Shown piece by piece: positions 5,073 through 40,649 of a DNA stretch of 64,000 bases. How positions within the stretch are numbered: position 1 is the first letter of the stretch; each line of letters begins with the position of its first letter. The notes beneath the pieces were generated by a model that worked only from the letters and a program-made list of their open reading frames with translations, was not told where the DNA came from and searched no databases. A program made the position numbers and the translations under genes. Source of the stretch: Cyanidioschyzon merolae (taxonomy: Eukaryota). Location of the stretch: the NCBI GenBank assembly GCA_000091205.1, contig AP006498.2, one strand, 5' to 3'.

Positions 5073-5298
5073 AGTGGATCACAAGCTTTATATGCAATCG
5101 TTAGCGCTAAACTGTTACCGCTCCCAGGGCTGAGGTCCAGAGACCACACTCGAGTTCACGTTCTTTCGTCGACGTGTCCGAAGCGTCAGCGCTGAACAGT
5201 CTGAGCCCTAGCGGGCCGCGGCTCGTTTCGCACCGACTCCCGCAGCGCGTCCGTCTCGTTTCTCCGCCTAACGTCAAGAGGGTGCTTCGGAGCCGGCA

Positions 5299-5640
5299 AT
5301 GGCGACACCGCTTTTAGCTGGTATTGCGGTTGCTGGCGCAGCTCTAGCTGGAAGAGCGGCTATACGGGCGTGGCAAGTACTGAAGACGGCGCCGGCTCGG
5401 CCAAAGTTTCCGCGTTCCTTTTTGCAGGGCGGCTTCGAGCCCACTATGAGTCGCACGGAGGCGCTTCACATTCTGGGGCTCAGGGAGGGTGTTCCCCGAG
5501 AAAAAGTACGCGAGGCGCACCGTCGACTGATGCGAATAAATCATCCCGACACGGGCGGAAGCGCATACCTCGCAGCAAAAGTCAACGAGGCGAAAGAGGT
5601 GCTGCTAGGGACGGGGCGCCGACCCACAGCCGGTGTGTAG
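5299..5640 (+). CDS. PAM18: Mitochondrial import inner membrane translocase subunit TIM14/PAM18 (J-domain protein)
   Basis: 113 aa; N-terminal hydrophobic TM segment (LLAGIAVAGAALAGRA), J-domain with ...EAHRRLMRINHPDTGGSAYLAAKVNEAKEVL (HPD motif followed by GGS, typical of TIM14/DNAJC19). Confidence 0.8.
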   Translation: MATPLLAGIAVAGAALAGRAAIRAWQVLKTAPARPKFPRSFLQGGFEPTMSRTEALHILGLREGVPREKVREAHRRLMRINHPDTGGSAYLAAKVNEAKEVLLGTGRRPTAGV

Positions 5641-6547
5641 AGTTTGGCGGTTCTGTTCGCTGCAACAGTACAAGATACGAACTTGTAGTCTGCTCGAGTT
5701 GGCAAGCATTGAACAAGTTTTGCTCGTTGGCGCTGTGCCGGGTCGATAGCGCTCGTCTGGGACACCGAGCACTCTGGCGTGCTTCTGGAGGTCGCGAGCG
5801 ACCTCCAGGCACCTCTGGGGCGTGGAGCCAGCCACCTCGGTTGCTGCGCGGTAACTGCTGTTCGAAGTCTTTAAAGTACGCTCCGAGAGAGTTTTGCCTT
5901 TTTTTTCTGGATGCGGAACGATGATCTCGTGTTATGCAGTGCTTGCGCAGTGACAGTAGCCATGCATCATCCCGGGCCGAGATGTGCACTGCCGCGAACG
6001 ACACTGAGCAGAGGTCCAGCCAATGAATTGCAATGCTGGAGATGGACTAGAATTTCATGAGAAAGGAACCTGCAGTTTACCCAACGGTACTGGATGTAAA
6101 TTTCTGACATGGGGTTTATGTGCGATGAATGAATGATACCAGGGTCCGGCGTTGACATTCCCGGAGAGGTGCGGATCTCAGGCCCCTGAATCAGCCACGA
6201 GTGCTAGCTTTGTCTGCATCCGCAGCGCTCTCGCTGCGCTGTAATGTACCGTTCCTCGATGGATGTCAAAACGTGTAGCCGAATGGGCGTTGGTAGAGGC
6301 GTCTAGGGCGCGATGCGGCGCGCTTCAAGCGTTCGAGCAAGGCACGGCACCCTGGGTCGATGCTCCGTTAAAACAGGCTTGAGTGATGGCGTTCAAAGTC
6401 CAAGCCATTTCCGTGACGGCAGATGCCTTGCCTGTGAAAACTTGAGGAAACAGCGTCGGCGACGATGCGACTTACATGAGCAGGCCGCTGCCGTCTGAAC
6501 CGCGCCGTCTCCTTCTCCGGTAAGCTTGCGCACGTTTTCGCCTGCTT

Positions 6548-6946
6548 TCAGAGCAGAAGCTGTTCGATCTTTGTTCGAAGCGCGGTGATCTGGTTCCGCA
6601 GTTGACTCATATCCGCCCGTAGAACCGCACAGGCGATCACTGGACGGGAAACGCCGCATGCACGTCCCAGCGCGGCTTTCGAGGGAACGAATACATACGG
6701 TACCGCTTTATCCTCTGCAACGAGCGGCGCTGAGAGCAGTATCTCCAAAGGTTGCGTATCAGCCGCGAGAACAACAAACTCTGCCAGACCGCGATTCATC
6801 GACTTGAGCACCTCGTTCAGACCCTTTTTGATCTGCTTATAATGGCTCGCTTGCTGGACAAGATCGAGTATTTCAACGACTAAGTCAGCAGGAGCGAACG
6901 GGTACGCTCTCGGATCCGCCTGATTCGGCGCGGTGACGACGTCCAT
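6548..6946 (-). CDS. SNU13: Snu13 / NHP2-like protein 1 (15.5K; L7Ae family snRNP/snoRNP protein)
   Basis: About 132 aa from Met MDVV...; near-identical core to NHP2L1: [36 protein letters not shown]...[32 protein letters not shown]. Six-frame ORF extends to 7006 but the conserved N-terminus begins at 6946. Confidence 0.85.
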
Positions 6947-8130
6947 GGGCCTGCTTGGCGCTTCAGTGGAGCTCAAAGGTTCCATGTGTTGCCACACAAA
7001 CTTCACTAGCAGTGGAAGCCAGTGCGATGTTCAAAACTAAAGATTGTTCGAAAACCAGCGCAATCGCACCGTTGCTTGTCCAACAAGCGTCCTCGTTCAC
7101 GAGTACTTGTGCCGAAAGAAACTTGGCTGCGGCCTTATCGGATACGGGACTCGCACCCGTCGCAAACACTCTAAGAGGGAGCAAGCCCTCGGTCGCGTAT
7201 GATCCCAGTTGGCTCTCACACCCGTGACCCTTTCTTGGTTCGAAGAGCGCCTCTCAGTCCCAAGAAAAACTCGATCGCCCGCGAAGCAGAACAAAAGCGC
7301 CTTGAAGCACTCTCCGAAGAACAAGGAGAGCGTCTCCTGAAACGTTTGCCGCAGGATTGATGCGCCGACGGGTGTAGGGTCGGCTAGAGGCCCCGGTTTG
7401 CACACGATCCCCAATGAGATAGGGACAGTTTGGTAAATCAGTGACTTTTGTTGTAGATTATATGACAAGAGCTTCGCACTGCGTACGCTGCGCACTGGAG
7501 CAGCAAGCGAACGCTGTCCATGGACCTCCAAGGTACACGTTTGGACGCAACGCGTTCGCCGGGTGTCGGCTTACCTGCTGGTTGGTGTGGTGCAGCAATG
7601 CCTAAGGAATTTGACAAGTACCGAGATATCGTTTCAAAAAAGATGGATCGGGTGAATTTCCGTGCCCATGCACTGCGCTGAGCTTCATGCCGTAGGACGG
7701 CTCCTGATCTGACGGTAAACGCATTCACGTGGCATGCGCTGAACGCCCATCGCGGTATTTATCTACTTTGACAAGGGTTTGCACAGGAATACACGAACCA
7801 ATAGCTGTGCAGGTGCAGATAATCATTTAGATATTAAACTTGATCCACTGTTTCACCCTTACTATTCATGGGTAGAGGTATCGGCAACTGCGAAAGCAAA
7901 AATAATCTTTTGCAAACAAGGTTTTGTCCTCTATATCATTCACACAGTCAGGGATAGCTGCTTTGCAGGCTGCAAGAGCAGCCTCAGGCTGACGGTCCTC
8001 CCTAGACTCTGCAGATATATACTCGCCAGGGTTGCTTAAGGCAGTTGTGGCAACCGCGCTTCCCCGTGAAGGCAGCACGTCCGTCCGATACAGGCGATAC
8101 ACCCAAGTCAGTGTAGGATACAACCGGTCC

Positions 8131-9672
8131 TCTGATGTGGGCGTACATTCTAAAGTTTCGCTCTCTGTAAACCATCATCCACAATAGCATTTGCAGGGTT
8201 TTTTCTAACTCGTTTCCCACGTAGAATCCACTGGTCTCGCCTGCTCCTCCAGCTTCGTTACCATCACTCGACGGATGTTGATGGCACCAAGATCGTGCCT
8301 GCTACGCTGGCTCAGGTTTCGTCAACGCTTTCCATGCAAAAGGCGCAGGGTATCATCTAAGCTCCGCTTACCATTCGGATCTCCTTCGCGCGCAACCTCG
8401 GTACACTCTTTACGGCGGTGGCACATCACTTCGGTCATGTTTTCAAGCACGTGCATCAACTCGCCGCCGCGGAAGGCTGCTCTATGGCGCGTTGACGCCT
8501 GCTTCATCGCTTGGTTCATGCTCTGGACGAGTGCAGAAGGCATCGCTTGATGCGCGCCCCCGTCTTGGTGCTCGGTGCAGTACCATACGAGCATCCGCCT
8601 CTTCTGGGCGATGCGCTCGGCGAGTACATTGTCCGTTGCACGCCCAAACGCAGGCGGCTCTATTGGATCGAGGATCTGTGAAACGTCAGCTTTTCCTTGA
8701 TGAACCTATTACCTTGCAGAGAATCGAGGCTCAAACACACGCCGAGAAATTTCGTTGCGTCTACACTCTCATCGGGCAAAACGGTGATACACGCCCCGCA
8801 GGAAGCGATCGCTGCGATGGCTCAAGTCCGAGTCCAAGAACCTGCTCGATCCCCAGAGAAGAGACGTGAGCCTCTGGGAGCAAATCCCATGTGAGAAATC
8901 ATGCTGCTGCCGAATGCCATTCCATTTATATCCATACAGATATCATGACAGATAATCCAACGACTAGGTGTGAATCCGTAAGCCGTTGTTGCCGCTGCAC
9001 TTCGAATGTCAAGGCTCTAGACCTGAAATAAGGTTTGGAAAATCTCCATGCAGGAACAGAGCCAGCATCCCAGTGTTCCCTGTTTCGAGCACATTCTATC
9101 GTCGCCTTTGGAGTATTCCGCTCGACAAGTGCTGGTGCCTTGTGAGCGGGCGCTGCTCGCCGCATTGGACACAGACACGCCTAGCGTTGCTTGCTGACGT
9201 CACTGCTTCTGCTGCTGCAACTTGCGAACCGGGCAGCTGGAAGTACGCAAACTCGCCAACGACGAGAGGCGCTCTAGTGTTGGAAGCTCCGTGCACTGCA
9301 GAGCGCGATTGTCGCTTGCTACCCAGAACGCTTTTTCGGTAGCTGCGACGGCAGTAGCAGCAGCTGCTACTTCTGCCAAAAACCGCCGCCGGTTCGCAGC
9401 CACGCCATCGTTGCTGTGAACGGGTGTCGCTTTCGAGGTTGCTCGTGAAACTTGGGTACCGTTGGAAGGCGCGGGGTCTTTGGCATTGGACCTCACTGGA
9501 AGTGAAACGCGTTCTGGGTGTCGATTACCTAAAAACAAGAGGCCCGGAACCAGAGGCGTCCCTGCGTATCGGCTGTACGCGACGGACGTCCGATACCAGG
9601 TTTCAGCGCTTATACGTAGCGGACGGAGGGGACGCGTCTCAAAAGTCTTCAACTCGAAAGGAGCATAGTTTC
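8131..9672 (+). repeat. Dispersed repeat family copy A (about 1.55 kb, unclassified; possibly a non-autonomous TE or fragment of a larger element)
   Basis: Near-identical (inverted) to 44615-46185 and partially to 31530-32340; duplicated six-frame ORFs (e.g. MTPASSLGSCSGRVQKASL..., MLVWYCTEHQDGGAHQA...) appear in all copies; no TIRs or LTR ends found. Confidence 0.7.
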
Positions 9673-9789
9673 GTTTCAAACAGAATTGGAAGAACAGCGC
9701 GCACATATTCTATCAGGTGTTAGGTTCTGTAGGTAGGTCTTGTCTGGCTGTTCCAGCAACAGACGATCGCTGGCATTCCGCTCGCGGAT

Positions 9790-12700
9790 ATGTACGCGGC
9801 GCTGCATCGAGTCACAGCAACGATTGAAGCTGTTGATCTTAGCCCGCTACACTTCGAAGCTCATGTGTCTAGCCCAGCTTCTATGAGTCGTAGAATGACT
9901 GCGTTGCTTCACTGGGGACCTTCTCCAGTGCTCTTTGCCTCTCCTTTTTACCAGGCTGGGGCTCGAAATCAGCGAGCAAACGCCACGAAAATCACTCGCT
10001 GGAGTATACGCTGTCGAAAATACGCTCGCTCTGAGGGCCTCGGTTTTCTAGCAATCACGCAACCAAAGACCAGCCTGGTACGAACGGCATCACACGCGGC
10101 TTACAACGCAAATCTATGGGCAGCAAGGAGATCCGGGCGAGTTTCTCCTCGAATGACGACAGGTTCTTCACCAGTGCTGTCGACTCGTCGTGCGGAACTT
10201 GTCTGCTCGCGCTACGTAGTCTTCTCTGATCTTCATGTCGATGCGAATCGGCTGGAGACGTGCTTGCAAGTTCTTGAGCGAGTTCATGAATTGGCCACTG
10301 CCAGAGATGCGGGCATCATATTTCTTGGCGATTTCTGGCATCTACGAGGAAGCATCCCAGTCATATGCCTCAATCGGGTCCTGGAGACGGTTCAGCAATT
10401 CACTGTACCATGCCTGATGCTTCCAGGTAATCACGACCAGGTAAGCATCTGCGGACGGGAACACGCGCTGGTCCCAGTGGCGGCAGCGATGCAGCCTGGT
10501 CTCGCGCTCGTGTTTGACGAACCTGTAGTGATGTTTGATGCGCTCTGGCTGCCGTATCGCAAGCGTCCGCTGCAACTAGTGGAAGCGCTGCGAGAACACG
10601 GACCCCATGTGAAAGCTGTCTTCTGTCATGCGGAGATTCAGGGCGCGTGGCTCAATAACCAGATGCGCTATGGAGGGCCCGGTGGTATCGCACCGGAGCT
10701 CTTCCCGCCTTCGCCAGTACCAACCTATGCGGGTCACTTTCATCGGCCCCATACGGTGACGGGCTATCCGCATATCCAGTATGTAGGCTCGCCCTATCAG
10801 GTCACGCGAGCTGAGGAAGGACAAGAGAAACATCTCCTTGTCGTGCGATCAACGGACTGGCTCACAGAGGAAATCGTGCCGCTAGCCATTGGACCTCGTT
10901 TCTTTCGCGTTTCATTGAAACAGGCTCGGCAACAACTAAGCGCTAGCATCCCTGCATCGGCGGCAGAAGCAACAACATCAGCGACAACGGGCTTTCGACC
11001 CGGTGATCGTGTTACGCTGCTCTGCACCGCATCCGAGCTGCAGCAACAGCGCACCGCCGGTGCCAAAGACATGGACCACGATTTGGAGTATGTCTATAAC
11101 GAACTACGTCGCAGAGGCATTCACGCAAGTATGCGCCTATGGGATGCACCAGCAGAAAATGAGAAAGTTTCATCGAGCAGCGCGCAACGCACCTTTGTTG
11201 AACCTCAGTTGCGAATGCCGAATGCGGAGCGCCTCGACGCTGCCGATGTGCTGCGCCTGTTTGCGCGCCAGCACCCGCAGCAGTTGGACGGAACGACGCT
11301 GGCGCTCGGACTTTCGATTTTAGAACAAATTCAAAAATCGAACGCAAAAATTGCTCGCGGGGAATCTTTTTCGCGCTTGCGTGCTGTGCATGTCCTCTTC
11401 GATTCTGTGCGACTCCATAATTTCGGCTGTTTCCATACTGAACCGGATAGCAACCAAGTAGATCAGCTGTCAATGGACGTAGCAGGGAGCACAAGGCATC
11501 AGATGAGCGTCACGAGTGCTTCGGAAGAATCGCACCAGGACCTCGAATCCAACGGTGGTGTCGTGAAGCGCGGGCGAGTGGCGGCGGCTACTGCTACGGC
11601 GGATGGAGCATGGCGTACGATCCCCGCGAAACCTGGTATCTGGTATCCGCTGCGCAATCGAGGGATCGTCCAAGTATCTGGACGCAATCTCGATGAAGAC
11701 GGTTGCAATTCGAATGGTACGGGAAAAACGACTTTGGCGATGGCAGCGCTATGGGCTCTAACAGGGAGCCTGGAACCGCGGCCTCATCTGCGACGTAACG
11801 TGTCGCAGTTGCGGATTCTGCACGAGGACGCTACGGAAGGTTTTGTTGAATTGCGAGCTAGCGTGAATGGAAAACCGCTTTTGGTGCGGAGGAAAGTTCG
11901 CCGCAGTGGGAAACAGCGGGAAAGATATAACCAGGAGCTTTTCGTGGAGTACGACTCCCGGGATCTCACACGCCTCAGCATCGAGGAAACACAACAGCGA
12001 CTGAATGAGATCATTGATCTCTCACTGTTGCCACATGTAGTCTTTTTTGGCCAGAATTATCTGCATGGCTTGCTCTCCACAACCGACAAGGAGTTTAAGG
12101 AGATTCTGGAGAGCGCCTTGCCGCTGCAAGTCTGGAACGAGGCCTATGCGCATGTCACTGCACGACAGCGAGCACTGCGTGAAGAACGCCAGCAACTTGC
12201 TCAAAAAATCCAGAGCTGTTCACAGGCGTTAGAGCGCGAGCGGGAACGAATCGAAGAGCTCGCTCGAACAGAGCGAGAAACAAGACTGCAACTCGATCTT
12301 CAAGAGCAGGAACTGAAGCAGAGTCTCGAGCAGTGGCAGCAAGGCGCAGCGGAAGCATCGGCCTCGGATACTATCGACAGCGGCAGCGACAACACGTCTC
12401 TCGAGGCGCTCCGCGAACGCATTCGTCACCTGAAAGCGAGCATCGATGCCGACGTGACCACTCTGGCGGAGCTGCAACGCAAGGAGGCGAAACTTCATGC
12501 GGAGCTTGCCCAGGCGCAGAGACTCTGGGATCAGTGGGCTGCGCTCCATGCGCAGCTCCAAGGCGATGCGGGAATAACCGTGTGCCAGGGCAGCCTCGAG
12601 CAACGCCGCACGGCTCTGCACGAACAAGTGAAAGACCTCAAACGAGTGTTGCAAGAGCTTCAGCTCCAGGAGCAGAGCACAGTTGCCAGCATACGCCACT

Positions 12701-14013
12701 TGGACCGGATGCTGCATTCGGAGCAACCTCCGGTGGCATCCAGCGCAGCAGATTGCGATGGAGCAGCAAAGCCGCAGCAAACACATTCGAAGACTTTCTG
12801 CGCCCTGTGTCTCCAACCAGTAGATGCTGCGTCGTATGCTGATCGTTTACAGGCCCTACAGACGGACCGCCAGCGTCTGGCAAGTGCGCTGGATGACCTC
12901 CGCGCACAGCGGCACGACAAGGACGCGGAAATCCAGATCATGGAGCGCGAACTCAGAGACACAGAAGCGGCATTCATGGAGCGGCATGCATTGGAGCAAC
13001 GCCTCGATGCAGTGGTGGCGTTGCGCCCCACACCCGAGCATTTGCATGAGCTTTCGCAAGCGAGCGATCGTTGCAGCATGGAGGCCGCACTTGTTATGCG
13101 CACGCTCGATACGAATCGCCAGCTTCTAGCCGAATATGAACAGCATCTGCTGCAGCAGCAAGAGCTGCGTTTGCACCAGGAACAACAGCGCGCGCGTTAC
13201 GACCGAGCCCTTCGAGCGTTGGACTGGACTCAACAGCAGCGACAGCGTCTACTCCAACCGATAGCTGCTGCGATCCTAGAGGCAACTGCGCACGTCGCGT
13301 CGCTACAGTCCACGTTAAACGAAGCGGTAGCGCATGAACGCACGCTTGTGGATACTGCGGATCGTCTGGAATTCCTTGCGCGCGCATTTCATCGCGGTGG
13401 CATACCGAGCCAGTTACTGGATCAGAGCCTGCAAGTCATCGAGACGCTTTGTGGTCATTACCTACGACATCTGAGCGATGATACGCTTTTACTGCGAATA
13501 CGTCGTCGCCGACAAGCGCAGCGTCCTCGGGAGCGGGAGCTTACCAAGGCTACCACGCGCGCAGAGAACGCACTCGAAGTACTTGTCTGGCAAGTCTACT
13601 GTCGAGACGCGCGCACAGGCACGTTCCGGGAACGAGAACTAGGCCTGCTCAGCGGCGGTCAGTTGCGACGAGTCAGTATTGCACTTTCCTTGGCCTTTGC
13701 CGAGTACATCTGTCATCAGCTGGGATATCGTAGTAATCTGCTGGTCTTGGACGAGGCTCTTCAACAGCTTGATCAAGAGGGTGCCCGTCGCTTAGCGTCA
13801 CTACTGCCGCAGCTGCAACGTGAGACGGTGCTGGTTATTGCCCACGAGAATGCCAGCTTTCTCGTGGACATCGCGGATGCGCATGATGTTGTGGAGCGTG
13901 CATCAGGGCGCAGCACGGTGCACTGTGATACCGGGTTTTTAGAGACAGAGCTCGCAGGCGACTCGTTTTCAGGGCGTTCAGAGCTCGTCCCGCAAGCGCA
14001 GGTCCGACGCTGA
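9790..14013 (+). CDS. SbcD/Mre11-like metallophosphoesterase fused to SbcC/Rad50-like SMC-type ABC ATPase (single 1407-aa polypeptide) with about 140-aa N-terminal extension (possible organellar targeting)
   Basis: Calcineurin-like phosphoesterase motifs in order: VVFSDLHVD, GDFWHLRG, LPGNHD, FCHAEIQG, GHFHRP. Then Walker A NSNGTGKTT, about 600 aa of heptad/coiled-coil sequence with a central CALC (CxxC zinc-hook-like) motif, ABC signature LSGGQLRRV, Walker B LLVLDEA, H-loop VIAHENAS. Confidence 0.7.
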   Translation: MYAALHRVTATIEAVDLSPLHFEAHVSSPASMSRRMTALLHWGPSPVLFASPFYQAGARNQRANATKITRWSIRCRKYARSEGLGFLAITQPKTSLVRTASHAAYNANLWAARRSGRVSPRMTTGSSPVLSTRRAELVCSRYVVFSDLHVDANRLETCLQVLERVHELATARDAGIIFLGDFWHLRGSIPVICLNRVLETVQQFTVPCLMLPGNHDQVSICGREHALVPVAAAMQPGLALVFDEPVVMFDALWLPYRKRPLQLVEALREHGPHVKAVFCHAEIQGAWLNNQMRYGGPGGIAPELFPPSPVPTYAGHFHRPHTVTGYPHIQYVGSPYQVTRAEEGQEKHLLVVRSTDWLTEEIVPLAIGPRFFRVSLKQARQQLSASIPASAAEATTSATTGFRPGDRVTLLCTASELQQQRTAGAKDMDHDLEYVYNELRRRGIHASMRLWDAPAENEKVSSSSAQRTFVEPQLRMPNAERLDAADVLRLFARQHPQQLDGTTLALGLSILEQIQKSNAKIARGESFSRLRAVHVLFDSVRLHNFGCFHTEPDSNQVDQLSMDVAGSTRHQMSVTSASEESHQDLESNGGVVKRGRVAAATATADGAWRTIPAKPGIWYPLRNRGIVQVSGRNLDEDGCNSNGTGKTTLAMAALWALTGSLEPRPHLRRNVSQLRILHEDATEGFVELRASVNGKPLLVRRKVRRSGKQRERYNQELFVEYDSRDLTRLSIEETQQRLNEIIDLSLLPHVVFFGQNYLHGLLSTTDKEFKEILESALPLQVWNEAYAHVTARQRALREERQQLAQKIQSCSQALERERERIEELARTERETRLQLDLQEQELKQSLEQWQQGAAEASASDTIDSGSDNTSLEALRERIRHLKASIDADVTTLAELQRKEAKLHAELAQAQRLWDQWAALHAQLQGDAGITVCQGSLEQRRTALHEQVKDLKRVLQELQLQEQSTVASIRHLDRMLHSEQPPVASSAADCDGAAKPQQTHSKTFCALCLQPVDAASYADRLQALQTDRQRLASALDDLRAQRHDKDAEIQIMERELRDTEAAFMERHALEQRLDAVVALRPTPEHLHELSQASDRCSMEAALVMRTLDTNRQLLAEYEQHLLQQQELRLHQEQQRARYDRALRALDWTQQQRQRLLQPIAAAILEATAHVASLQSTLNEAVAHERTLVDTADRLEFLARAFHRGGIPSQLLDQSLQVIETLCGHYLRHLSDDTLLLRIRRRRQAQRPRERELTKATTRAENALEVLVWQVYCRDARTGTFRERELGLLSGGQLRRVSIALSLAFAEYICHQLGYRSNLLVLDEALQQLDQEGARRLASLLPQLQRETVLVIAHENASFLVDIADAHDVVERASGRSTVHCDTGFLETELAGDSFSGRSELVPQAQVRR

Positions 14014-24989: not shown

Positions 24990-25312
24990 TGGGTTCAACA
25001 ACGGCAAGAAACGCATGGAGTTTGTGAACCGAGACTTTAACGCCGCTATCGATATCAGGAGATGTGCGGTGCTGGAGACGAGACCTCCAGAATAGACAAG
25101 AGTGAACTTTGTTGGACAGCCTCCAAAAATTGAACTATATGAGAAATAATTGGAACCAGTAGCTCGTGGCCGGTCGAAAATGGCTGGGAGGCGTCTGCAC
25201 ATCAGCTGGAGACGCTGTGTCTAGGGCGCGGTTTCTCGCCAATACTGTGCACGGCCAACGGCGACGTTCGACTTCTGAGGCGAGTTTGGTAGTGGTGGTA
25301 TTATGTGGTGTT
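24990..25312 (+). mobile_element. Solo 3'-terminal fragment of the Fanzor/TnpB-type element (last about 30 codons plus conserved non-coding right end)
   Basis: Encodes ...[29 protein letters not shown]; the following about 220 bp align with 40650-40872 (gtggccggtc.aaaa..gctgggaggcgtctgcac...ggagacg.c.tgtctagggcg...gttcgactt...). Confidence 0.6.
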
Positions 25313-27099
25313 TCGTGACTGGACGGTGTGCTCCACTTTGGGGGGTTAACACAAACAGCACTTCGGTGACAGCTCGGTCTCGATGGAGGACGGCTGTCTG
25401 CGGCGGCCAGCAGCAGAGGTGCACAAGACGCACAAAGCTGGCATCGAGGCGTCCCTGCCGGGCTAGCGCTAGTGACCCGAACTTCTGGCGAGACGTGGCG
25501 CGCTCAGTGTCCGAGCAGGGCGAGCTGGCGACTTCGCGAGCTCCTGTGCGTCGAGAGCGACCTCCTCCGCAATGGGTGGCGCCGCCGCCCGGCTTTGAAC
25601 TCGATACGAGCGGCGAAAGCAGTTCGACTTGGGCTTCATGGCGCGCGGCGGCAGAGGCAGCGCAAGCCGAGCAAGAGGCGGTGCAAGAGCGGCTTGAGCG
25701 TGGCGAACCTGTGCGTGATATGACCGCTGAACGAAACTTCTGGCGGAGCGCAGCGGCTGAACTAGGCGCACCGTTGGACCCCGGCAGAACGGCAGCCGAG
25801 CTACGCACTGCAGCAGGCGGGTTGGCGGAGCGTCCTTCGGAGCATAATCGCAGCGAAGAGATTGGGAGCATCGATTCGAACATTCCTGAATCGGATGAGG
25901 AGTGGGACCCCGACACCTCCTGGATGCAAATGTATGCGTCAGACGCTGTTGAATTCGTTTCGGGAACCGAATCTGCTGATGATAATCTTCAAGGGACACT
26001 TTGGGGCGCCGCTCTGGGATCCGAGCAAGCAGCACGCGAACGTTCATCCACATCCTTGCAGTCGTTATCCGCAGAATGGGACACGAAGGAGCGCATTCCT
26101 GATTCCGGGGCAGAAGCTGCAGACGAGGAGGAAACCTTGGAGCCGCGCGATCCGAAGAAGGAGACAGCATTCTGGCGGGGTGCGGCCCAGGAGCTGCTTG
26201 GGGCATCCACGGGAGCTACGTCGGATGCGTTCGCGACTCGCTCGACCACGTCGCACAGCGCAGACGGGAGTGCCACGCAGGACTCCGAAGAGGAAACCTG
26301 GGAGCCGCGCGATCCGAAGAAGGAGACAGCATTCTGGCGGGGTGCGGCCCAGGAGCTGCTTGGGGCATCCACGGGAGCTACGTCGGATGCGTTCGCGACT
26401 CGCTCGACCACGTCGCACAGCGCAGACGGGAGTGCCACGCAGGACTCCGAAGAGGAAACCTGGGAGCCGCGCGATCCGAAGAAGGAGACAGCATTCTGGC
26501 GGGGTGCGGCCCAGGAGCTGCTTGGGGCATCCACGGGAGCTACGTCGGATGCGTTCGCGACTCGCTCGACCACGTCGCACAGCGCAGACGGGAGTGCCAC
26601 GCAGGACTCCGAAGAGGAAACCTGGGAGCCGCGCGATCCGAAGAAGGAGACAGCATTCTGGCGGGGTGCGGCTCAAGACATCATCGAGAGCCTTCCGACA
26701 CAAATCGAACTCGGTGTGGATGCACAGTCAAGCGCCAGCACTCCCGCCGTTCCCGATGCGCATGCCGGAACTGGTGATCCCGACGTTACAGCCGAAGAGC
26801 CCGTAGGCCCAGCTGAAGCCTGGGCTGCCTGGCGTGCCGCCCGAGCTTCTTCTAAGAACGTGTCCGCTTTACCCGCTCCTGTGGCTGAGACGCACCCAGA
26901 ACCTCTTTCTGAAACAGAGATCTGGATTCAGTGGCGAGAACAGCAAAGAAAAACCTGGGCAGGAGCCCTCAACGACCTGAACCGTAACCGTCCGCGAGAA
27001 CAGCAAGTTGCGCGACCCGAGAAAAGCACCGTTGATCGCTGGCGCCATGTTGCCGCAGAACTATCACAAGACAGCCCACAAAGCGAGGAGAACTCATAA
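25303..27099 (+). CDS. Repeat-containing acidic protein with reiterated FWR motifs; true start uncertain (first codons overlap the TE fragment end)
   Basis: 598-aa ORF; motifs NFWRDVA, NFWRSAAAELGAP, AFWRGAAQELLGAS x4, EAWAAWRAA, DRWRHVAAEL; contains 3.35 tandem copies of a 54-aa (162-bp) unit. Confidence 0.45.
   Translation: MWCFVTGRCAPLWGVNTNSTSVTARSRWRTAVCGGQQQRCTRRTKLASRRPCRASASDPNFWRDVARSVSEQGELATSRAPVRRERPPPQWVAPPPGFELDTSGESSSTWASWRAAAEAAQAEQEAVQERLERGEPVRDMTAERNFWRSAAAELGAPLDPGRTAAELRTAAGGLAERPSEHNRSEEIGSIDSNIPESDEEWDPDTSWMQMYASDAVEFVSGTESADDNLQGTLWGAALGSEQAARERSSTSLQSLSAEWDTKERIPDSGAEAADEEETLEPRDPKKETAFWRGAAQELLGASTGATSDAFATRSTTSHSADGSATQDSEEETWEPRDPKKETAFWRGAAQELLGASTGATSDAFATRSTTSHSADGSATQDSEEETWEPRDPKKETAFWRGAAQELLGASTGATSDAFATRSTTSHSADGSATQDSEEETWEPRDPKKETAFWRGAAQDIIESLPTQIELGVDAQSSASTPAVPDAHAGTGDPDVTAEEPVGPAEAWAAWRAARASSKNVSALPAPVAETHPEPLSETEIWIQWREQQRKTWAGALNDLNRNRPREQQVARPEKSTVDRWRHVAAELSQDSPQSEENS
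26125..26670 (+). repeat. 162-bp tandem repeat x3.35 (in-frame, inside CDS); copies 2-4 identical
   Basis: Unit starts at 26125, 26287, 26449 and 26611 (gaagaggaaacctgggagccgcgcgatccgaagaaggagacagcattctggcgg...). Confidence 0.85.
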
Positions 27100-37222: not shown

Positions 37223-37499
37223 GACACCCCCAAGTCTTTGACCTCGCTGGTACGAGCGGCTCGAGCCGGTTCAACTGTTCGCCCCCTAGAGCCCAGACGC
37301 CACTAACAGTTCGGCTCCTGGTGGTAAAAGATTGCTTGACTTTGCTGAGCCCCGAACAGCACTGTATCTCCCAACAGCGCAGTAGATAGCTCGCATAAGA
37401 ACGGGTATGTGTCGTTGGAGCGCAAGTGCGTCCAAGGTTTCATTTGGTGTCCGGTTCGCCATCGTCGCACCTGCGCTGCAGTACTCTGGCGCTTGCAGT

Positions 37500-37731
37500 G
37501 CATTTGAAAACGGTACATTGAGCATTGGAGTTGCCCTAGATCAGTGCACTCTTGGGCACAGAGCAGGGACACGCTTCGACTGCGGCTCGTGTTCCATGTG
37601 GATGCAGCGCATTTGAAAACGGTACATTGAACACTGGAGTTGCCCTAGATCAGTGCACTCTTGGGCACAGAGCAGGGACACGCTTCGACTGCGGCTCGTG
37701 TTCCATGTGGATGCAGTGCATTTGAAAACGT
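37500..37731. repeat. 109-bp tandem duplication (2 copies plus 13-bp partial), non-coding, about 97% identical
   Basis: Unit gcatttgaaaacggtacattga.ca.tggagttgccctagatcagtgcactcttgggcacagagcagggacacgcttcgactgcggctcgtgttccatgtggatgcag starts at 37500, 37609 and 37718. Confidence 0.85.
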
Positions 37732-38586
37732 TTCCAATGTATTCTCGAGCGGCGGAGCTCGTCGTGTTGGGATCGTTCCCAACGGCTCGGGGCTCGATGC
37801 AGTCGTTGGAAAGCGTGACGTTCGTGCACGCGTCCGCACCGAAACTGAAAATAGGGATGACCTAAACGAAAATTGACGCTCTCTCATGTAATCCAAATTC
37901 GGAGCTGAATTCAAAGACCAGAACCGAATGCTTCTGAACCAGCAGCTACAGGGCATTGGAGGAAACGCACATTCGAGCGACGCACAAGAACCCCGGACAC
38001 AACCCCGTTCGCCGCGATCCACGTATGATCCGTACCCCAGTTCGAACGGATGCCCTATGTGGTACGGCAACGCCGTTCTGTCTCCGTGACGCAACTGTAC
38101 CGAAGGTAAAGACGCTATTGCGGATGACTAGGGCAGGCATTAGGTGTGCGATAGAACGCATGAAACGACCAGAAAATCCGAGAAGAAGTTTCGGTAATGT
38201 GACTTGGGAGTAGGGTGTTTGATGGATACTTCAAAGCGCACTGAAAAACAAATAAAAAAGAAAGAAAAGAAAAAGCGCACAGTCGGAGAACGCTGGCCTA
38301 AGTAAACGTCTTGTCAATGAAAAAAGAATCCCGCTCGGTGAGCGCATCAGGGAGATCGGGCAGTCAACTGACAAGACGCGCATGTCGCCGTTGAAGAGAA
38401 AAGCGATCCTGATCAGGTGCGTGTTCTACCGGAACAAGTTGGATTTCCGTTGGAGTTTTACAAAAAAGCAGTTTTTCATTTCATTTGTGCTTCAAACCTC
38501 AAACAAGTCTAGTCCAGAGTTTTTTCGCAGTATATAACAAAAGCGTTCGAAGAGCGTTCTTTTTCGAAAAAATAAAAAGGAAAGCT

Positions 38587-40649
38587 ATGAAAAGCAAGTC
38601 GACGATCCTGGAAGCCCAGTTTCGCCGGCTGCCAGAAAAAAAACAGAAAAACAGTGCCAAGTCCAGAAGAAAAGGAAGAGAAGAAGAACCGAAAGGGGGA
38701 TACCCTACGTCGAAGGCCGCAAGAAAGGCAACTGCACGACGAGAAGGCGGTGAAAGCCTTTCTTCTTGGACATATCAAGGATCCCTGCAGGGAAAAGTTG
38801 CGAGACGCTATCGGAAAACTTGTCGACTCGTACTCCAAGAGTATTGTCAAGGCGTCGTCAGGACCGATGCATTTGGCCAGGGAGACGTATCGCGACGTGA
38901 CGCACATGGAAACAGTCGAGATGCCGGACGAGTCGTTCGACATGACCCTTATTCGATACCTGATGCTTGGTACAGAAAAAGCGCAGAAGGAAAATGAGCT
39001 TGTGCATGCCCTCAACGAAAACTTCGCGGAATTCTGCTTCGAGGGTACCAGAGACGGGGGTGACTCGGATATTTACGACTATGGGGCGATGAAGTACCTC
39101 ACGAATCTGAAGAACCGTTTGACAACGAACCTCGAACGTTTCATGACACGCGCAGTGTTTGCACTCTACCCGGGCCAATCTCGCAATGGAAAATGGACGA
39201 TTATCAGTGGCATCACGAGAGATCGCAAGCGTGAAGATGAGGTCGAATTTGTCGATAAGAAGGCATCTAATGAGAGCACAAATGAAGCTTCTGTAATCCG
39301 TGCGGTTATACAAGAGCACCGCGCAGTTTTGGGCTGGCGAATCCAGCAGACAAGCTATCAGAGTTGAAAAAAGATACGGAGACATACTATCGCCTCATCC
39401 TGCGCGATTTCGTGTTTTTGGATCGAGAATTCGAACGCAAGGCGGAGATGAAGCTGAGCGAGGAAAAAATGAAGAGTGGGAGAGACGGAAGGCTTTCCTA
39501 ATGGGGAAGCGCTTCAACATGGTTCCAGTGTGCAACATCAAGTCACATTTTGTGACTATCGACTCCAGCGTCCTTCATGGCATCATGAGGGAGATCAGTC
39601 CGGAGTTCAATGTTAGCAGGGAGGACTTCAACGGTGAAAACCGGGAGACGTACTGGAAGAATATCTTCGACTTCAAGCGTCTCAAAGCCAGCAAGCAAAA
39701 GGTATTCACTGAGATGATCGAAACCAATGGAGTAGACATGTGTATACACTATCGGCGGTTGAAGAGAGATCGTCCAGTCCTGCCCTCAGCGAAGCATGAA
39801 GATGAGAAGGGGGCGGATCCTGCGACGCAGGAAGTGCAGGATAACGACTTCGTCGCTGGCGCGGACTCCGGAAACACAAATATCATAACCATCGCAGCAC
39901 CGAAGCTTGCGGAAGATGGTGCTGACGGCAACTTACGTCAGAAAGACATGCGTCCTTTAAGGTTCTCGAGAGCGAGATACTATTGAGAATCTGGAATCAT
40001 GAATGCGAGGAAGAAAACTGAGAAGTGGAATTCAGGAATGAAGGATCACCTGGAAGCTTTGAGCGAGGTGACGAGCCGAGGAGCAGACTTTGAAGCTTTT
40101 CGGGAGTTCATGGATGTTCGCGTTGCTCATTGGGATGCGCTGTAGGAGGAGTATACAAAGCCCCGGTCGCCTCGTTTGCGAATGAATTCGTATTGTGGGA
40201 AGCAGCGGGCGTTCGCGAATTTTTCAATGAGTTGAGTGCCCTGAAGGAGGATGAAAATCAGAGGCTCGTAGTAGCGTACGGAGCAGGGCACTGGAAGACC
40301 CAAAAAGGGTGTACACCAGCTCCAACGACGAGAGCGTACAAGGAGTGCGCAAGGCGTCTCGTTACGATACCTGTAGATGAGTTCCGGACATCGTATACAC
40401 ACCATGAACTGGGTTGTACACTTCAGAGGGTGGAGATGGAAAAGTGCCAGCGGAGCCCCGAGGCTATAAAAAAGTACGGACCGCTCACAGAAGAGCAAAT
40501 GGAAAGGAGAGCGAATGTTCGAGGGCCTGCTTGCATCAGTAAGTACAACCAGTGATGGTAAGAACCGGAAAGAGTTTGTGAACCGAGACTTTAACGCCGC
40601 TATGAATATAAGGAGATGTGCGGTGCTGGAGAACAGACCTCCAGAGTAG
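38587..40649 (+). CDS. Fanzor1 / TnpB-like RNA-guided endonuclease (RuvC-like), reading frame interrupted at least 3 times (short introns or frameshifts; possibly a pseudogene)
   Basis: Segments: 38587/38654-39367 (Lys/Arg-rich NLS-like N-terminus), 39300-39986 (contains RuvC-I ...[17 protein letters not shown] at about 39858), 40130-40555 (contains VVAYGAGHW and a Cys/His-rich segment [13 protein letters not shown]...EKCQRS...PACIS), 40560-40649 (Ruv[28 protein letters not shown], the NRDxNAAxNI hallmark of TnpB/Fanzor/Cas12). Summed about 640 aa. Confidence 0.6.

Follow-up and report, generated by a model that had tools for sequence, protein, structure and literature searches.

The stretch of DNA analysed here, a window of 64,000 nucleotides from Cyanidioschyzon merolae, carries a complete, intronless open reading frame (ORF) at 9790..14013 (+), which opens with an ATG and encodes a protein of 1407 amino acids (aa) followed by a stop codon, the closest upstream in-frame stop being at position 9730. 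The product is 100% identical to the C. merolae 10D protein BAM81923.1 / XP_005537959.1, mis-annotated as "similar to desmoplakin", the gene of which is carried on a 908-kb chromosome. Together with this chromosome, the neighbouring ORFs (ubiquitin hydrolase, proteasome RPN1, class-I tRNA synthetase, Elongator PAXNEB, 4-alpha-glucanotransferase with CBM20, and HscB) show that the ORF sits in a nuclear context, as the original prediction had stated. Every nuclease, ATPase and hook motif that it had listed was also found in its place, and the covalent SbcD-SbcC (Mre11-Rad50) fusion it described is borne out by Pfam, by predicted folds and by full-length orthologues.

The single-chain Mre11-Rad50 (SbcDC-like) protein, recognised by its ORF, Pfam matches and identity to BAM81923.1, begins with an N-terminal extension (aa 1-139; 9790..10206, +), a putative organelle (plastid) transit peptide by its composition and the lack of alignment among orthologues. 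An Mre11/SbcD-type phosphodiesterase domain with its capping domain follows (aa 140-454; 10207..11151, +), where the metal ligands lie in motifs I (D147/H149; DLHVD, aa 147-151), II (D181/H184; GDFWH, aa 180-184), III (N214/H215; GNHD, aa 213-216), IV (H280; HAEIQG, aa 280-285) and V (H316/H318; GHFHRP, aa 315-320). All ligands are present, and the di-metal nuclease site is intact as far as its residues tell. Just N-terminal of the ATPase, the AF2 secondary structure predicts two helices (aa 484-494 and 501-522; 11239..11355, +), which at moderate model confidence would occupy the place expected for the helix-loop-helix Rad50-binding domain of Mre11. A linker of about 10 aa separates them from the first ATPase strand (aa 533), and both helix position and linker length are consistent with the argument made in PMC3175470.

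The N-lobe of the Rad50/SbcC ABC-ATPase (aa 533-778; 11386..12123, +), delimited by Pfam, the alignment and AF2, contains the Walker A motif (S641-T648, with GTGKTT at aa 643-648; 11710-11733, +) and the Q-loop FFGQ (aa 752-755; 12043-12054, +). It also holds a low-complexity insertion (aa 558-609; 11461..11616, +; alignment columns 840-910, pLDDT <50), which C. merolae and Cyanidiococcus alone have at full length; it is shorter in Cyanidium and absent from the remaining aligned orthologues. AF2 helices delineate an ascending coiled-coil arm (aa 779-977; 12124..12720, +) with a low-confidence break around aa 854-870, and a descending arm (aa 1013-1200; 12826..13389, +) with a break around aa 1118-1129. 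Between them, the motif, the alignment and AF2 place a zinc-hook-like apex, CALCLQP (aa 1004-1010, CALC at aa 1004-1007; 12799..12819, +), in which C1004 and C1007 are invariant and Q1009 almost so among the aligned orthologues. In the AF2 model, the coiled coil measures about 2 x 195 aa and about 420 aa separate the ATPase lobes, which replaces the earlier estimate of a coiled coil of roughly 600 aa. The C-lobe (aa 1201-1378; 13390..13923, +), supported by Pfam, the alignment, AF2 and profile/fold matches, carries the motifs of the signature LSGGQ (aa 1287-1291; 13648-13662, +), Walker B LLVLDE (aa 1317-1322; 13738-13755, +), the D-loop (D1328; 13768-13782, +) and the H-loop (H1352 in VIAHE, aa 1349-1353; 13834-13848, +).

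In agreement with these assignments, four Pfam families match the protein, three of them above the Pfam gathering score: Metallophos (aa 141-222; 26.1 bits, cut-off 21.5), AAA_23 (aa 642-846; 40.7 bits, cut-off 27) and SbcC_Walker_B (aa 1278-1339; 29.1 bits, cut-off 27), while SMC_N (aa 641-1357; 37.3 bits) stays slightly under its cut-off of 40. The AF2 model of aa 525-1407 is an antiparallel coiled coil with the CxxC at its tip and a head in two lobes, and its top Foldseek match is Rad50 of C. thermophilum (E = 1e-19). Searched against PDB, the family profile matched Rad50 of M. jannaschii (1e-17) and of T. maritima (2e-13), E. coli SbcC (1e-6) and S. aureus SbcD (4e-6). Compared with archaeal and eukaryotic Mre11-Rad50 (M. 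jannaschii 3av0, C. thermophilum 7zr1, human MRN), the ATPase half matches Rad50 best, and an Mre11-like His in motif II, the capping domain, the coiled coil and the Zn hook are held in common. However, the coiled coil falls far short of the length seen in eukaryotic Rad50, nuclease and ATPase form one chain, and nothing points to an Nbs1/Xrs2 partner.

Orthologous fusions, which the original prediction had suggested looking for in related algae, are present in Cyanidiococcus (56% identity) and Cyanidium (38%), and the same architecture was found in more than 200 full-length orthologues from independent assemblies; the best matches of the C. merolae fusion are in mosses, liverworts, green algae and diatoms. 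Across 12 diverse orthologues no nuclease or ATPase motif residue varies (H-loop His aside), nor does either hook cysteine, and in 53-54 orthologues the hook cysteines and the majority of the ATPase motif residues show no variation, with the others at least 90% conserved. Only the rarity of the architecture would speak for an artefact, be it a chimeric assembly, a wrongly joined gene model or a viral insertion in decay. This reading, to which we give practically no credence, is refuted by the uninterrupted ORF with its exact match to the reference protein, at least eight full-length copies found independently in assemblies from JGI, ENA and Logan, the orthologues, a GC content of 55-57% equal to that of the flanks, and the invariant catalytic residues. 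The chimera considered in the original prediction is excluded because the architecture recurs in those independent assemblies and in four environmental C. merolae variants, which keep the 1407-aa frame with 6-13 substitutions only. On these comparisons, the ORF is evidently a real gene under selection.

All named orthologues belong to photosynthetic, plastid-bearing eukaryotes, comprising red, green, streptophyte and bryophyte/lycophyte lineages as well as diatoms, brown algae, xanthophytes, bolidophytes, a cryptophyte and Chromera. No fern, seed-plant, apicomplexan, ciliate or oomycete appeared among the named matches; since the homology searches scored only 8000 candidates, those sharing words with the query, it is soft evidence that seed plants, apicomplexans and non-photosynthetic eukaryotes yielded none. 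In a neighbour-joining distance tree of 575 columns at 20-33% identity, Cyanidiales (97% bootstrap), embryophytes (100%) and stramenopiles with Chromera (80%) were monophyletic, and long vertical inheritance is therefore favoured over repeated recent capture. Within Archaeplastida the gene seems to have come down by vertical descent, to have moved on with secondary plastids, and to have disappeared from seed plants.

Mre11/Rad50 fusions were first described by Yoshida, Claverie & Ogata (2011, Virol J 8:427; PMC3175470), who placed them outside the canonical clades of bacteria, archaea and eukaryotes and proposed lateral transfer from viruses, treating their distribution as sporadic. Their "moss-diatom-prasinophyte" group comprised sequences from Physcomitrella (A9RK34), Phaeodactylum (B7FXD6) and Micromonas (C1N0B1/C1FJU6); no red alga was listed, and N-terminal extensions or organelles were not discussed. 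The fusion is unusual, as had been claimed, but it is not new, and the C. merolae protein belongs to this published clade, to which it adds red algae. It shares with the described fusions the N-terminal Mre11-like nuclease, the short linker, the C-terminal Rad50-like ATPase, a His replacing the third Asp in motif II, the position outside the canonical clades, and the additional presence of a canonical nuclear MRE11, in C. merolae the separate gene CMB035C (PMC6606799). What differs from 2011 is that the clade now spans red, green and secondary-plastid lineages, with presequences.

By sequence similarity, the closest relatives outside the eukaryotes are two fusions from giant viruses and phage gene pairs in which the nuclease gene precedes that of the ATPase. 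With viral sequences gathered by eukaryotic-family motifs, and hence with a sampling bias, the HMM of the eukaryotic family gave 472 and 445 bits for the giant-virus fusions (L007, L008) and 394 and 327 bits for the phage pairs (L009, L010), against 138 and 125 bits for Spirulina SbcDC and 29 bits for E. coli SbcDC. On the C. merolae fusion itself, phrog_77 reached 175 bits and phrog_100 75 bits, while NCBIfam bacterial and archaeal models gave at most 66 bits, those for SbcD (31.9 bits, cut-off 450) and Rad50 included, far under their cut-offs. Giant-virus fusions, of which Mimivirus R555 is one, were compared through L007 and L008: these are likewise single chains of nuclease and ATPase with a CxxC hook, but they start at the nuclease domain, are shorter (~1030-1050 aa) and have GDFFD(H/T) as motif II. 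T4 gp47/gp46 and the SbcD-like/SbcC-like proteins of SPO1 and Twort (PHROG 100, 77) share the nuclease-then-ATPase order, the motifs FSDLH, GDFWH/GDFYH and GNHDQ, and the CxxC hook. Phage versions neighbour UvsX/RecA, SSB and RuvC genes, L009 and L010 being SSB-UvsX-nuclease-ATPase-RuvC modules, and a role that they probably share with the C. merolae fusion is making recombinogenic ends for recombination-dependent replication. They differ in that nuclease and ATPase are nearly always encoded by separate genes, which often overlap, and that the coiled coils are shorter (ATPase 570-670 aa); a fused phage example of 938 aa (P0095) exists.

The original prediction had called the protein bacterial-type; if canonical or cyanobacterial SbcCD is meant, this does not hold. 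An origin in which cyanobacterial sbcC and sbcD left the plastid ancestor for the nucleus and were joined there, giving a canonical SbcCD retargeted to the plastid, would agree with that view and with a distribution that follows plastids, and adjacent sbcC and sbcD do occur in cyanobacteria (L005, L006). We nevertheless regard it as improbable. The cyanobacterial order is sbcC then sbcD, opposite to the fusion, and a family-motif scan of 185,579 prokaryotic species returned three weak loci only. Cyanobacterial and E. coli SbcCD (PDB 6s6v) have separate subunits, GDxFD or GDAFPD as motif II, and profile scores of 29-138 bits only, whereas motifs I and II of the fusion are phage-type, with the motif II form FLGDFWHxR common to L009 and L010 and not to Spirulina or E. 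coli. In the same distance tree, canonical bacterial sequences split from eukaryotes and viruses in 98.5% of bootstraps, in line with the earlier placement of fusions outside canonical clades (PMC3175470). Eukaryotes and giant viruses grouped with 80% bootstrap, and since giant-virus sequences were nested in the eukaryotic clade or loosely placed there, the tree is compatible with transfer in either direction. Ultimately, the gene seems to go back to a phage-type recombination module and not to cyanobacterial sbcCD.

As for location, the extension of about 140 aa had rightly been described as rich in Ser, Arg and Ala (16, 16 and 21 residues in aa 1-139); it is Ser/Thr/Ala-rich with a net charge of +14, and Asp and Glu make up 4% against 13% in the remainder of the protein. 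Most orthologues with a complete 5' end have extensions of 40-420 aa, unconserved and unalignable in sequence, and the giant-virus and phage versions have none. Red-algal N-termini start with MTAF, MAF, MAKF or MY. In most stramenopile orthologues examined, a hydrophobic signal-peptide-like stretch precedes an "ASSF"-type motif (ASSF|QP, ASSF|QL, SNSF|H, MLSF|V, MLAF|V), and no obvious signal peptide was seen at the N-termini of Hanusia and Chromera, whose gene models may be incomplete. In heterokonts, an ER-type signal peptide with an ASAFAP-like motif directs proteins into the complex plastid and not into mitochondria. From this by-eye reading of N-termini and from taxonomy, plastid targeting seems likely because of the extensions, the photosynthetic-only named distribution and the bipartite plastid-type presequences of stramenopiles, three lines that favour the plastid over the mitochondrion. 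Import into the plastid, possibly into the mitochondrion too, is thus the somewhat more probable fate of the protein, and a probably chloroplast-targeted C. merolae member is a new lead relative to the 2011 fusions. Mainly or exclusively mitochondrial targeting is hardly likely: a basic Arg/Ser/Ala-rich presequence is indistinguishable by eye from a mitochondrial one, and in plants and algae the proteins that maintain organelle DNA often go to both organelles, but among the candidates scored no orthologue was seen in plastid-lacking eukaryotes, all of which have mitochondria, and diatom and brown-alga copies open with the ER-type signal and an ASAFAP-like motif. Rather doubtful, too, is a nuclear or cytosolic virus-derived second Mre11-Rad50 paralogue, serving specialised repair or defence against foreign or viral DNA, the extension then being a tail that is disordered or regulatory. 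Proteins of the SMC/Rad50 type have roles in immunity, weak PADLOC matches to LmuB, PbeC and mad3 were obtained, algal giant viruses carry the same fusion, which would fit a virus-host arms race, and virus-derived lateral transfer has been proposed (PMC3175470). Against it stand the transit-peptide-like composition of the unconserved extensions, the stramenopile stretch with its Phe motif, typical of complex-plastid import, the exclusively photosynthetic named members, and the vertical inheritance indicated by the tree.

Overall, the locus quite probably encodes a functional single-chain Mre11-Rad50 of a non-canonical, virus-related type, orthologous to the moss-diatom-prasinophyte clade. If the protein works like E. 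coli SbcCD, T4 gp46/47 and archaeal/eukaryotic Mre11-Rad50, two chains would pair via their nuclease domains, ATP-engaged heads and a Zn2+ shared at the hooks, giving the equivalent of M2R2. ATP binding and hydrolysis in the head would gate the Mn2+-dependent nuclease on DNA ends, hairpins and protein-blocked termini, and the processed ends could be passed to RecA-type recombination. The protein probably processes DNA ends or hairpins in an ATP-dependent manner for recombination in the organelle, where it may serve double-strand-break repair and recombination-dependent replication, and may rid the multicopy genome of hairpins or cruciforms. In the alignment, Gln takes the place of the H-loop His in most orthologues from outside the Cyanidiales, and the mechanism of the ATPase may therefore differ in its details.

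The open reading frame at positions 9790-14013 (+) of the window encodes a single chain of 1407 aa, in which an Mre11/SbcD-type nuclease is followed by a Rad50/SbcC-type ATPase. Translation confirmed the frame as originally predicted, with an ATG start and an in-frame stop 60 nt upstream. The product is 100% identical to the C. merolae 10D protein BAM81923.1/XP_005537959.1 (UniProt M1VKC3), which is encoded on a 908-kb chromosome and carries the GenBank name "similar to desmoplakin", a label that can now be corrected. The DNA of the window is nuclear DNA of Cyanidioschyzon merolae, and the ORFs around the gene encode housekeeping proteins usual for a eukaryote (ubiquitin hydrolase, RPN1, a class-I tRNA synthetase, PAXNEB, a glucanotransferase and HscB). 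Fused orthologues, sought in related algae at the suggestion of the original prediction, proved plentiful, as three homology searches recovered more than 200 proteins of 1000-1700 aa with the same nuclease-ATPase architecture. Furthermore, the full 1407-aa frame is preserved, with 6-13 substitutions, in four environmental C. merolae variants from independent assemblies. An assembly chimera of the two halves, which the original prediction had named as one finding that would refute it, and likewise a pseudogene, are ruled out by these full-frame variants, by the exact match to the reference and by the hundreds of fused orthologues. The gene is real and intact, and the fusion is a true one. Upstream of it, approximately 4.7 kb (window 5073-9789) hold no ORF of at least 250 aa on either strand, which is a long gap for the compact and almost intron-free genome of C. 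merolae.

In regard to the nuclease half, all five calcineurin-like phosphoesterase motifs (DxH, GDxxH/D, GNHD/E, H and GHxH) were found by sequence inspection on the + strand, as DLHVD (aa 147-151), GDFWH (aa 180-184), GNHD (aa 213-216), HAEIQG (aa 280-285) and GHFHRP (aa 315-320). They supply the di-metal ligands of Mre11/SbcD (D147/H149, D181/H184, N214/H215/D216, H280 and H316/H318), and none of these nuclease metal ligands varies among 12 aligned, distant orthologues. The phosphodiesterase fold is followed by the Mre11-specific capping domain, the combination by which the Mre11/SbcD family is recognized, and S. aureus SbcD is among the solved structures matched by the family profile. At the expected site of the Mre11 helix-loop-helix, the element that in this family binds to the Rad50 coiled coil at its base, two helices are predicted (aa 484-494 and 501-522, pLDDT ~82-93), separated by a linker of about 10 residues from the first strand of the ATPase, and this layout of helices and linker agrees with a published geometric argument (PMC3175470).

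The ATPase half holds a complete split ABC-ATPase head. Sequence inspection located SNGTGKTT at aa 641-648 (Walker A 643-648), the Q-loop residue Q755, the LSGGQ signature at aa 1287-1291 and Walker B at aa 1317-1322 with D1321/E1322, followed by D1328 of the D-loop and H1352 of the H-loop, all on the + strand. All motifs of the original prediction, those of the nuclease included, lie at the positions it had assigned to them, and profile searches uphold the domain assignments, with Pfam Metallophos (26.1 bits against a cut-off of 21.5), AAA_23 and SbcC_Walker_B all above their gathering scores. Walker A, Q-loop, LSGG, Walker B, D-loop and both hook cysteines are invariant in the 12 distant orthologues. 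The AF2 model of aa 525-1407 presents two ATPase lobes and antiparallel coiled-coil arms, ascending at aa 779-977 and descending at aa 1013-1200, with the putative zinc-hook CALC (aa 1004-1007) between them at the tip, which is a CxxC apex and not an SMC hinge. The hook cysteines, C1004/C1007, are also invariant in 53 orthologues. The helices of the model amount to about 2 x 195 residues, shorter than the coiled coil of roughly 600 aa that had been predicted. In a Foldseek search the best match of this model was C. thermophilum Rad50 (E = 1e-19), ahead of MukB, Smc5/6 and JetC. Likewise, the family profile placed Rad50 first in the PDB (1e-17 to 1e-9), matching archaeal, bacterial and eukaryotic Rad50 and E. 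coli SbcC, so the closest solved relatives of the ATPase half are Rad50/SbcC and not other SMC or ABC proteins. As to a place among anti-phage defence systems, PADLOC gave weak generic SMC-type matches only, to LmuB, PbeC and mad3.

Several details of this half vary among the orthologues. The histidine of the H-loop (VIAHE, aa 1349-1353, window 13834-13848) is kept in three Cyanidiales sequences only; the position is Gln in green, bryophyte, diatom and most other aligned orthologues, and neither His nor Gln in Chromera. Between the first strands of the N-lobe and the Walker A region lies a disordered low-complexity insertion (aa 558-609, window 11461-11616), which among the aligned orthologues reaches its full length in C. 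merolae and Cyanidiococcus only; Cyanidium has a shorter version and the others have none. The AF2 model also shows low-confidence breaks at aa ~854-870 and ~1118-1129 (window 12349-12399 and 13141-13176), at roughly matching heights in both arms, which may represent a joint or elbow of the coiled coil.

The original prediction considered a covalent fusion of this kind unusual. It is real, but as a class it was published in 2011, when Yoshida, Claverie and Ogata (Virol J 2011, PMC3175470) described Mimivirus R555 as an Mre11/Rad50 fusion and found twelve more. Among these, Physcomitrella, Phaeodactylum and Micromonas formed a well-supported "moss-diatom-prasinophyte group"; the fusions belonged to none of the canonical clades of bacteria, archaea and eukaryotes, and the same genomes also had normal Mre11/Rad50 genes. 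That study listed no red alga, attributed the distribution to sporadic lateral transfer and left organelles out of consideration (PMC3175470). By its sequence, the C. merolae protein is an orthologue of that moss-diatom-prasinophyte group, as well as the red-algal member of the published class. It shares with these fusions the one-chain order of N-terminal nuclease and C-terminal ATPase, and the proteins matching it best are fused too and come from red and green algae, bryophytes and diatoms. It likewise coexists with canonical MRE11, which in C. merolae is a separate gene, CMB035C, whose product forms nuclear foci (PMC6606799). Literature searches on SbcCD or Mre11/Rad50 in plastids or nucleoids, on the orthologue identifiers and on the desmoplakin label brought up Yoshida et al. 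2011 as the only paper on this clade. A different protein, without the Mre11 part, is encoded by the Rad50-like gene of Ostreococcus viruses (PMC12906663).

In the three homology searches, every orthologue with a species name was found to come from a photosynthetic lineage. Among red algae they include Cyanidiales, Galdieria and florideophytes, and on the green and streptophyte side chlorophytes, prasinophytes, Mesostigma, Chlorokybus, Spirogloea, Closterium, liverworts, mosses and a lycophyte. The others are from diatoms, brown algae, Tribonema, Triparma, an ochromonad, a cryptophyte and Chromera. In a word-filtered search with Marchantia as query, the best 120 matches included neither ferns nor seed plants, and a word-filtered search with Chromera as query returned no apicomplexans, ciliates or oomycetes. 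The clade is conserved in essentially every sampled group of photosynthetic eukaryotes, with no match from seed plants or plastid-lacking lineages in word-filtered searches. In public records, 'ABC transporter (ISS)' is the name given to the Chlorella and Micractinium orthologues, and some gene models, such as those of Elliptochloris (P0011) and Galdieria (P0029), include additional Pfam domains of no relation and appear to be merged with neighbouring genes.

As to the origin of the clade, the protein had been predicted to be of bacterial type, and descent from cyanobacterial SbcCD would be one form of this idea. The scores speak against it. Curated NCBIfam models gave 32-66 bits on the C. merolae protein against cut-offs of 300-700 (SbcD 31.9 bits, cut-off 450; Rad50 40.3 bits, cut-off 700), whereas the phage families phrog_77 (SbcC-like) and phrog_100 (SbcD-like) reached 175 and 75 bits. 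An HMM built from the eukaryotic fused orthologues scored giant-virus fusions at 472 and 445 bits and the closest phage pairs at 394 and 327, against 138 and 125 bits for Spirulina SbcDC and 29 bits for E. coli SbcDC. By both sets of scores the protein falls outside canonical bacterial, including cyanobacterial, SbcCD. A motif scan of 185,579 prokaryotic species, with one genome per species, returned three weak loci only, namely a phage-like pair in a Clostridiaceae MAG and, in Spirulina, two pairs of the ordinary kind with sbcC before sbcD. Applied to viral contigs, the scan yielded 171 relatives, and nearly all of the best 80 of these, which were inspected, consist of a nuclease gene followed by an adjacent ATPase gene. 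Both of the closest phage loci have the make-up of a recombination module, SSB-UvsX-nuclease-ATPase-RuvC, and the motif II signature FLGDFWHxR is common to the present family and the phage proteins only. A cyanobacterial origin is therefore disfavoured by the weak prokaryotic scan, the sbcC-then-sbcD order, the HMM scores and the motif comparison, and relationship of the clade to phage recombination nucleases, with a phage-type origin, is the likely alternative. The Spirulina sp. CCNP1310 locus L006:2397-6847, with sbcC preceding sbcD, is opposite in order both to the sbcD-sbcC operon of E. coli (L087) and to the domains of the fusion. A 938-aa fused nuclease-ATPase (P0095) is encoded on a phage-like contig (L003:10001-12817, JGI Ga0366832_1007315), with neighbours including an intein-containing DNA polymerase III alpha, RecA, ThyX and dUTPase.

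Two fused genes were present among the best 80 of the 171 viral relatives, both on giant-virus contigs from IMG/VR and both without an N-terminal extension. One (L007:4992-8084, contig of 310 kb) adjoins a mitochondrial-carrier gene and a LicD gene, and the other (L008:4998-8147, contig of 372 kb) adjoins RNA polymerase Rpb2. In a neighbour-joining tree (575 columns, 200 bootstraps), which is crude and has a viral sample biased by the search motifs, eukaryotic and viral sequences were split from canonical bacterial ones with 98.5% support, eukaryotes plus giant viruses were grouped with 80%, again with the bacterial sequences outside, and eukaryotes alone received 3.5%. The phage protein P0095 was left out of the tree due to its poor alignment to the eukaryote HMM (94% gaps). 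The low support for eukaryotes alone means that the giant-virus genes are nested in the eukaryotic clade or not separable from it, and they were probably captured from hosts.

The cellular location of the protein was judged from N-terminal composition and motif inspection. The extension of C. merolae comprises 139 aa with a net charge of +14, 19% Ser+Thr, 15% Ala and 4% acidic residues, a composition that suits a plastid transit peptide. Where the 5' end is complete, most orthologues have an unconserved stretch of 40-420 aa ahead of the nuclease, whereas the viral copies lack one. Diatom and brown-alga copies have a hydrophobic, signal-peptide-like start followed by ASSF|QP, ASSF|QL, SNSF|H, MLSF|V or MLAF|V, and in six stramenopile orthologues an ASAFAP-like motif was recognized after the hydrophobic stretch. 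Such a stretch with an ASAFAP-like Phe motif constitutes the bipartite signal by which proteins enter complex plastids. The first residues of red-algal copies are MTAF, MAF, MAKF or MY, which agrees with the aromatic-residue motif in transit peptides of rhodophytes. The N-termini of Hanusia and Chromera are unconvincing as plastid presequences, and a literature search found no proteomic or microscopy report of plastid location for the protein or its orthologues. Four lines together, i.e., the exclusively photosynthetic named orthologues, the taxon absences in word-filtered searches, the extensions and the stramenopile and red-algal motifs, moderately favour plastid targeting, possibly dual with mitochondria. 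The organelle targeting suggested in the original prediction is a reasonable hypothesis and has a better basis than before. The stramenopile orthologues P0023, P0026 and P0073 (Skeletonema, Cyclostephanos and Tribonema) have an extra conserved module of about 50 aa between presequence and nuclease (QVGDxVxV...GWYT[IL]R...RRGSQ[ML]E), which has no Pfam match and does not occur in red and green orthologues.

The analysis itself establishes the domain structure, catalytic residues, fold and conservation; dimerisation, activity, location and role are inferred. On the model of SbcCD, T4 gp46/47 and Mre11-Rad50, two chains would pair at three places, namely the nuclease domains, the heads engaged by ATP and the CxxC hooks, which would share a zinc ion. 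Under the control of ATP binding and hydrolysis, the head would alternate between a closed form that tethers DNA and a cutting form, in which the Mn2+ nuclease would trim ends, open hairpins or remove blocked termini, and the processed DNA would become a substrate for RecA-type strand invasion. An obvious use for such an activity would be the multicopy plastid genome, with its inverted repeats and recombination-dependent replication. For the end-resection step, reviews of organelle repair propose only hypothetical RecJ/RecQ-type nucleases (PMC8383295). We tentatively suggest, giving it slightly less than even weight, that the clade is the plastid's own machine for double-strand breaks and hairpins. 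A phage-type Mre11-Rad50 module would have become a fusion and been taken into the service of the primary plastid before the split of red and green algae, passed with secondary plastids to diatoms, brown algae, cryptophytes and chromerids, and lost in seed plants. It would supply end resection when plastid DNA is replicated and repaired in a RecA-dependent, recombination-driven manner.

If this is true, the phage-type fusion would join the known phage-derived enzymes of organelle DNA and RNA. Should the protein work in plastids, the enzyme that processes plastid DNA with breaks or hairpins would be identified for algae and bryophytes, and recombination-dependent replication in organelles could be approached through a single, tractable gene. 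C. merolae, Physcomitrium, Marchantia, Chlamydomonas and Phaeodactylum are all routinely amenable to gene targeting. For structural work on the communication between nuclease and ATPase, a natural single-chain Mre11-Rad50 would be a convenient subject too.

Two tandem repeats were also observed in the window. A 162-bp unit, present in 3.4 copies with 99% identity at positions 26124-26672, lies inside the ORF 25303-27099 (+), where it encodes near-identical 54-aa repeats; no credible Pfam family was found for this 598-aa ORF. A 109-bp repeat (37494-37730, 2.2 copies, 96%) adjoins the stretch 38001-40000, which has the lowest GC in the window (0.486) and a strong strand asymmetry, with an AT skew of 0.20 and a GC skew of 0.12.
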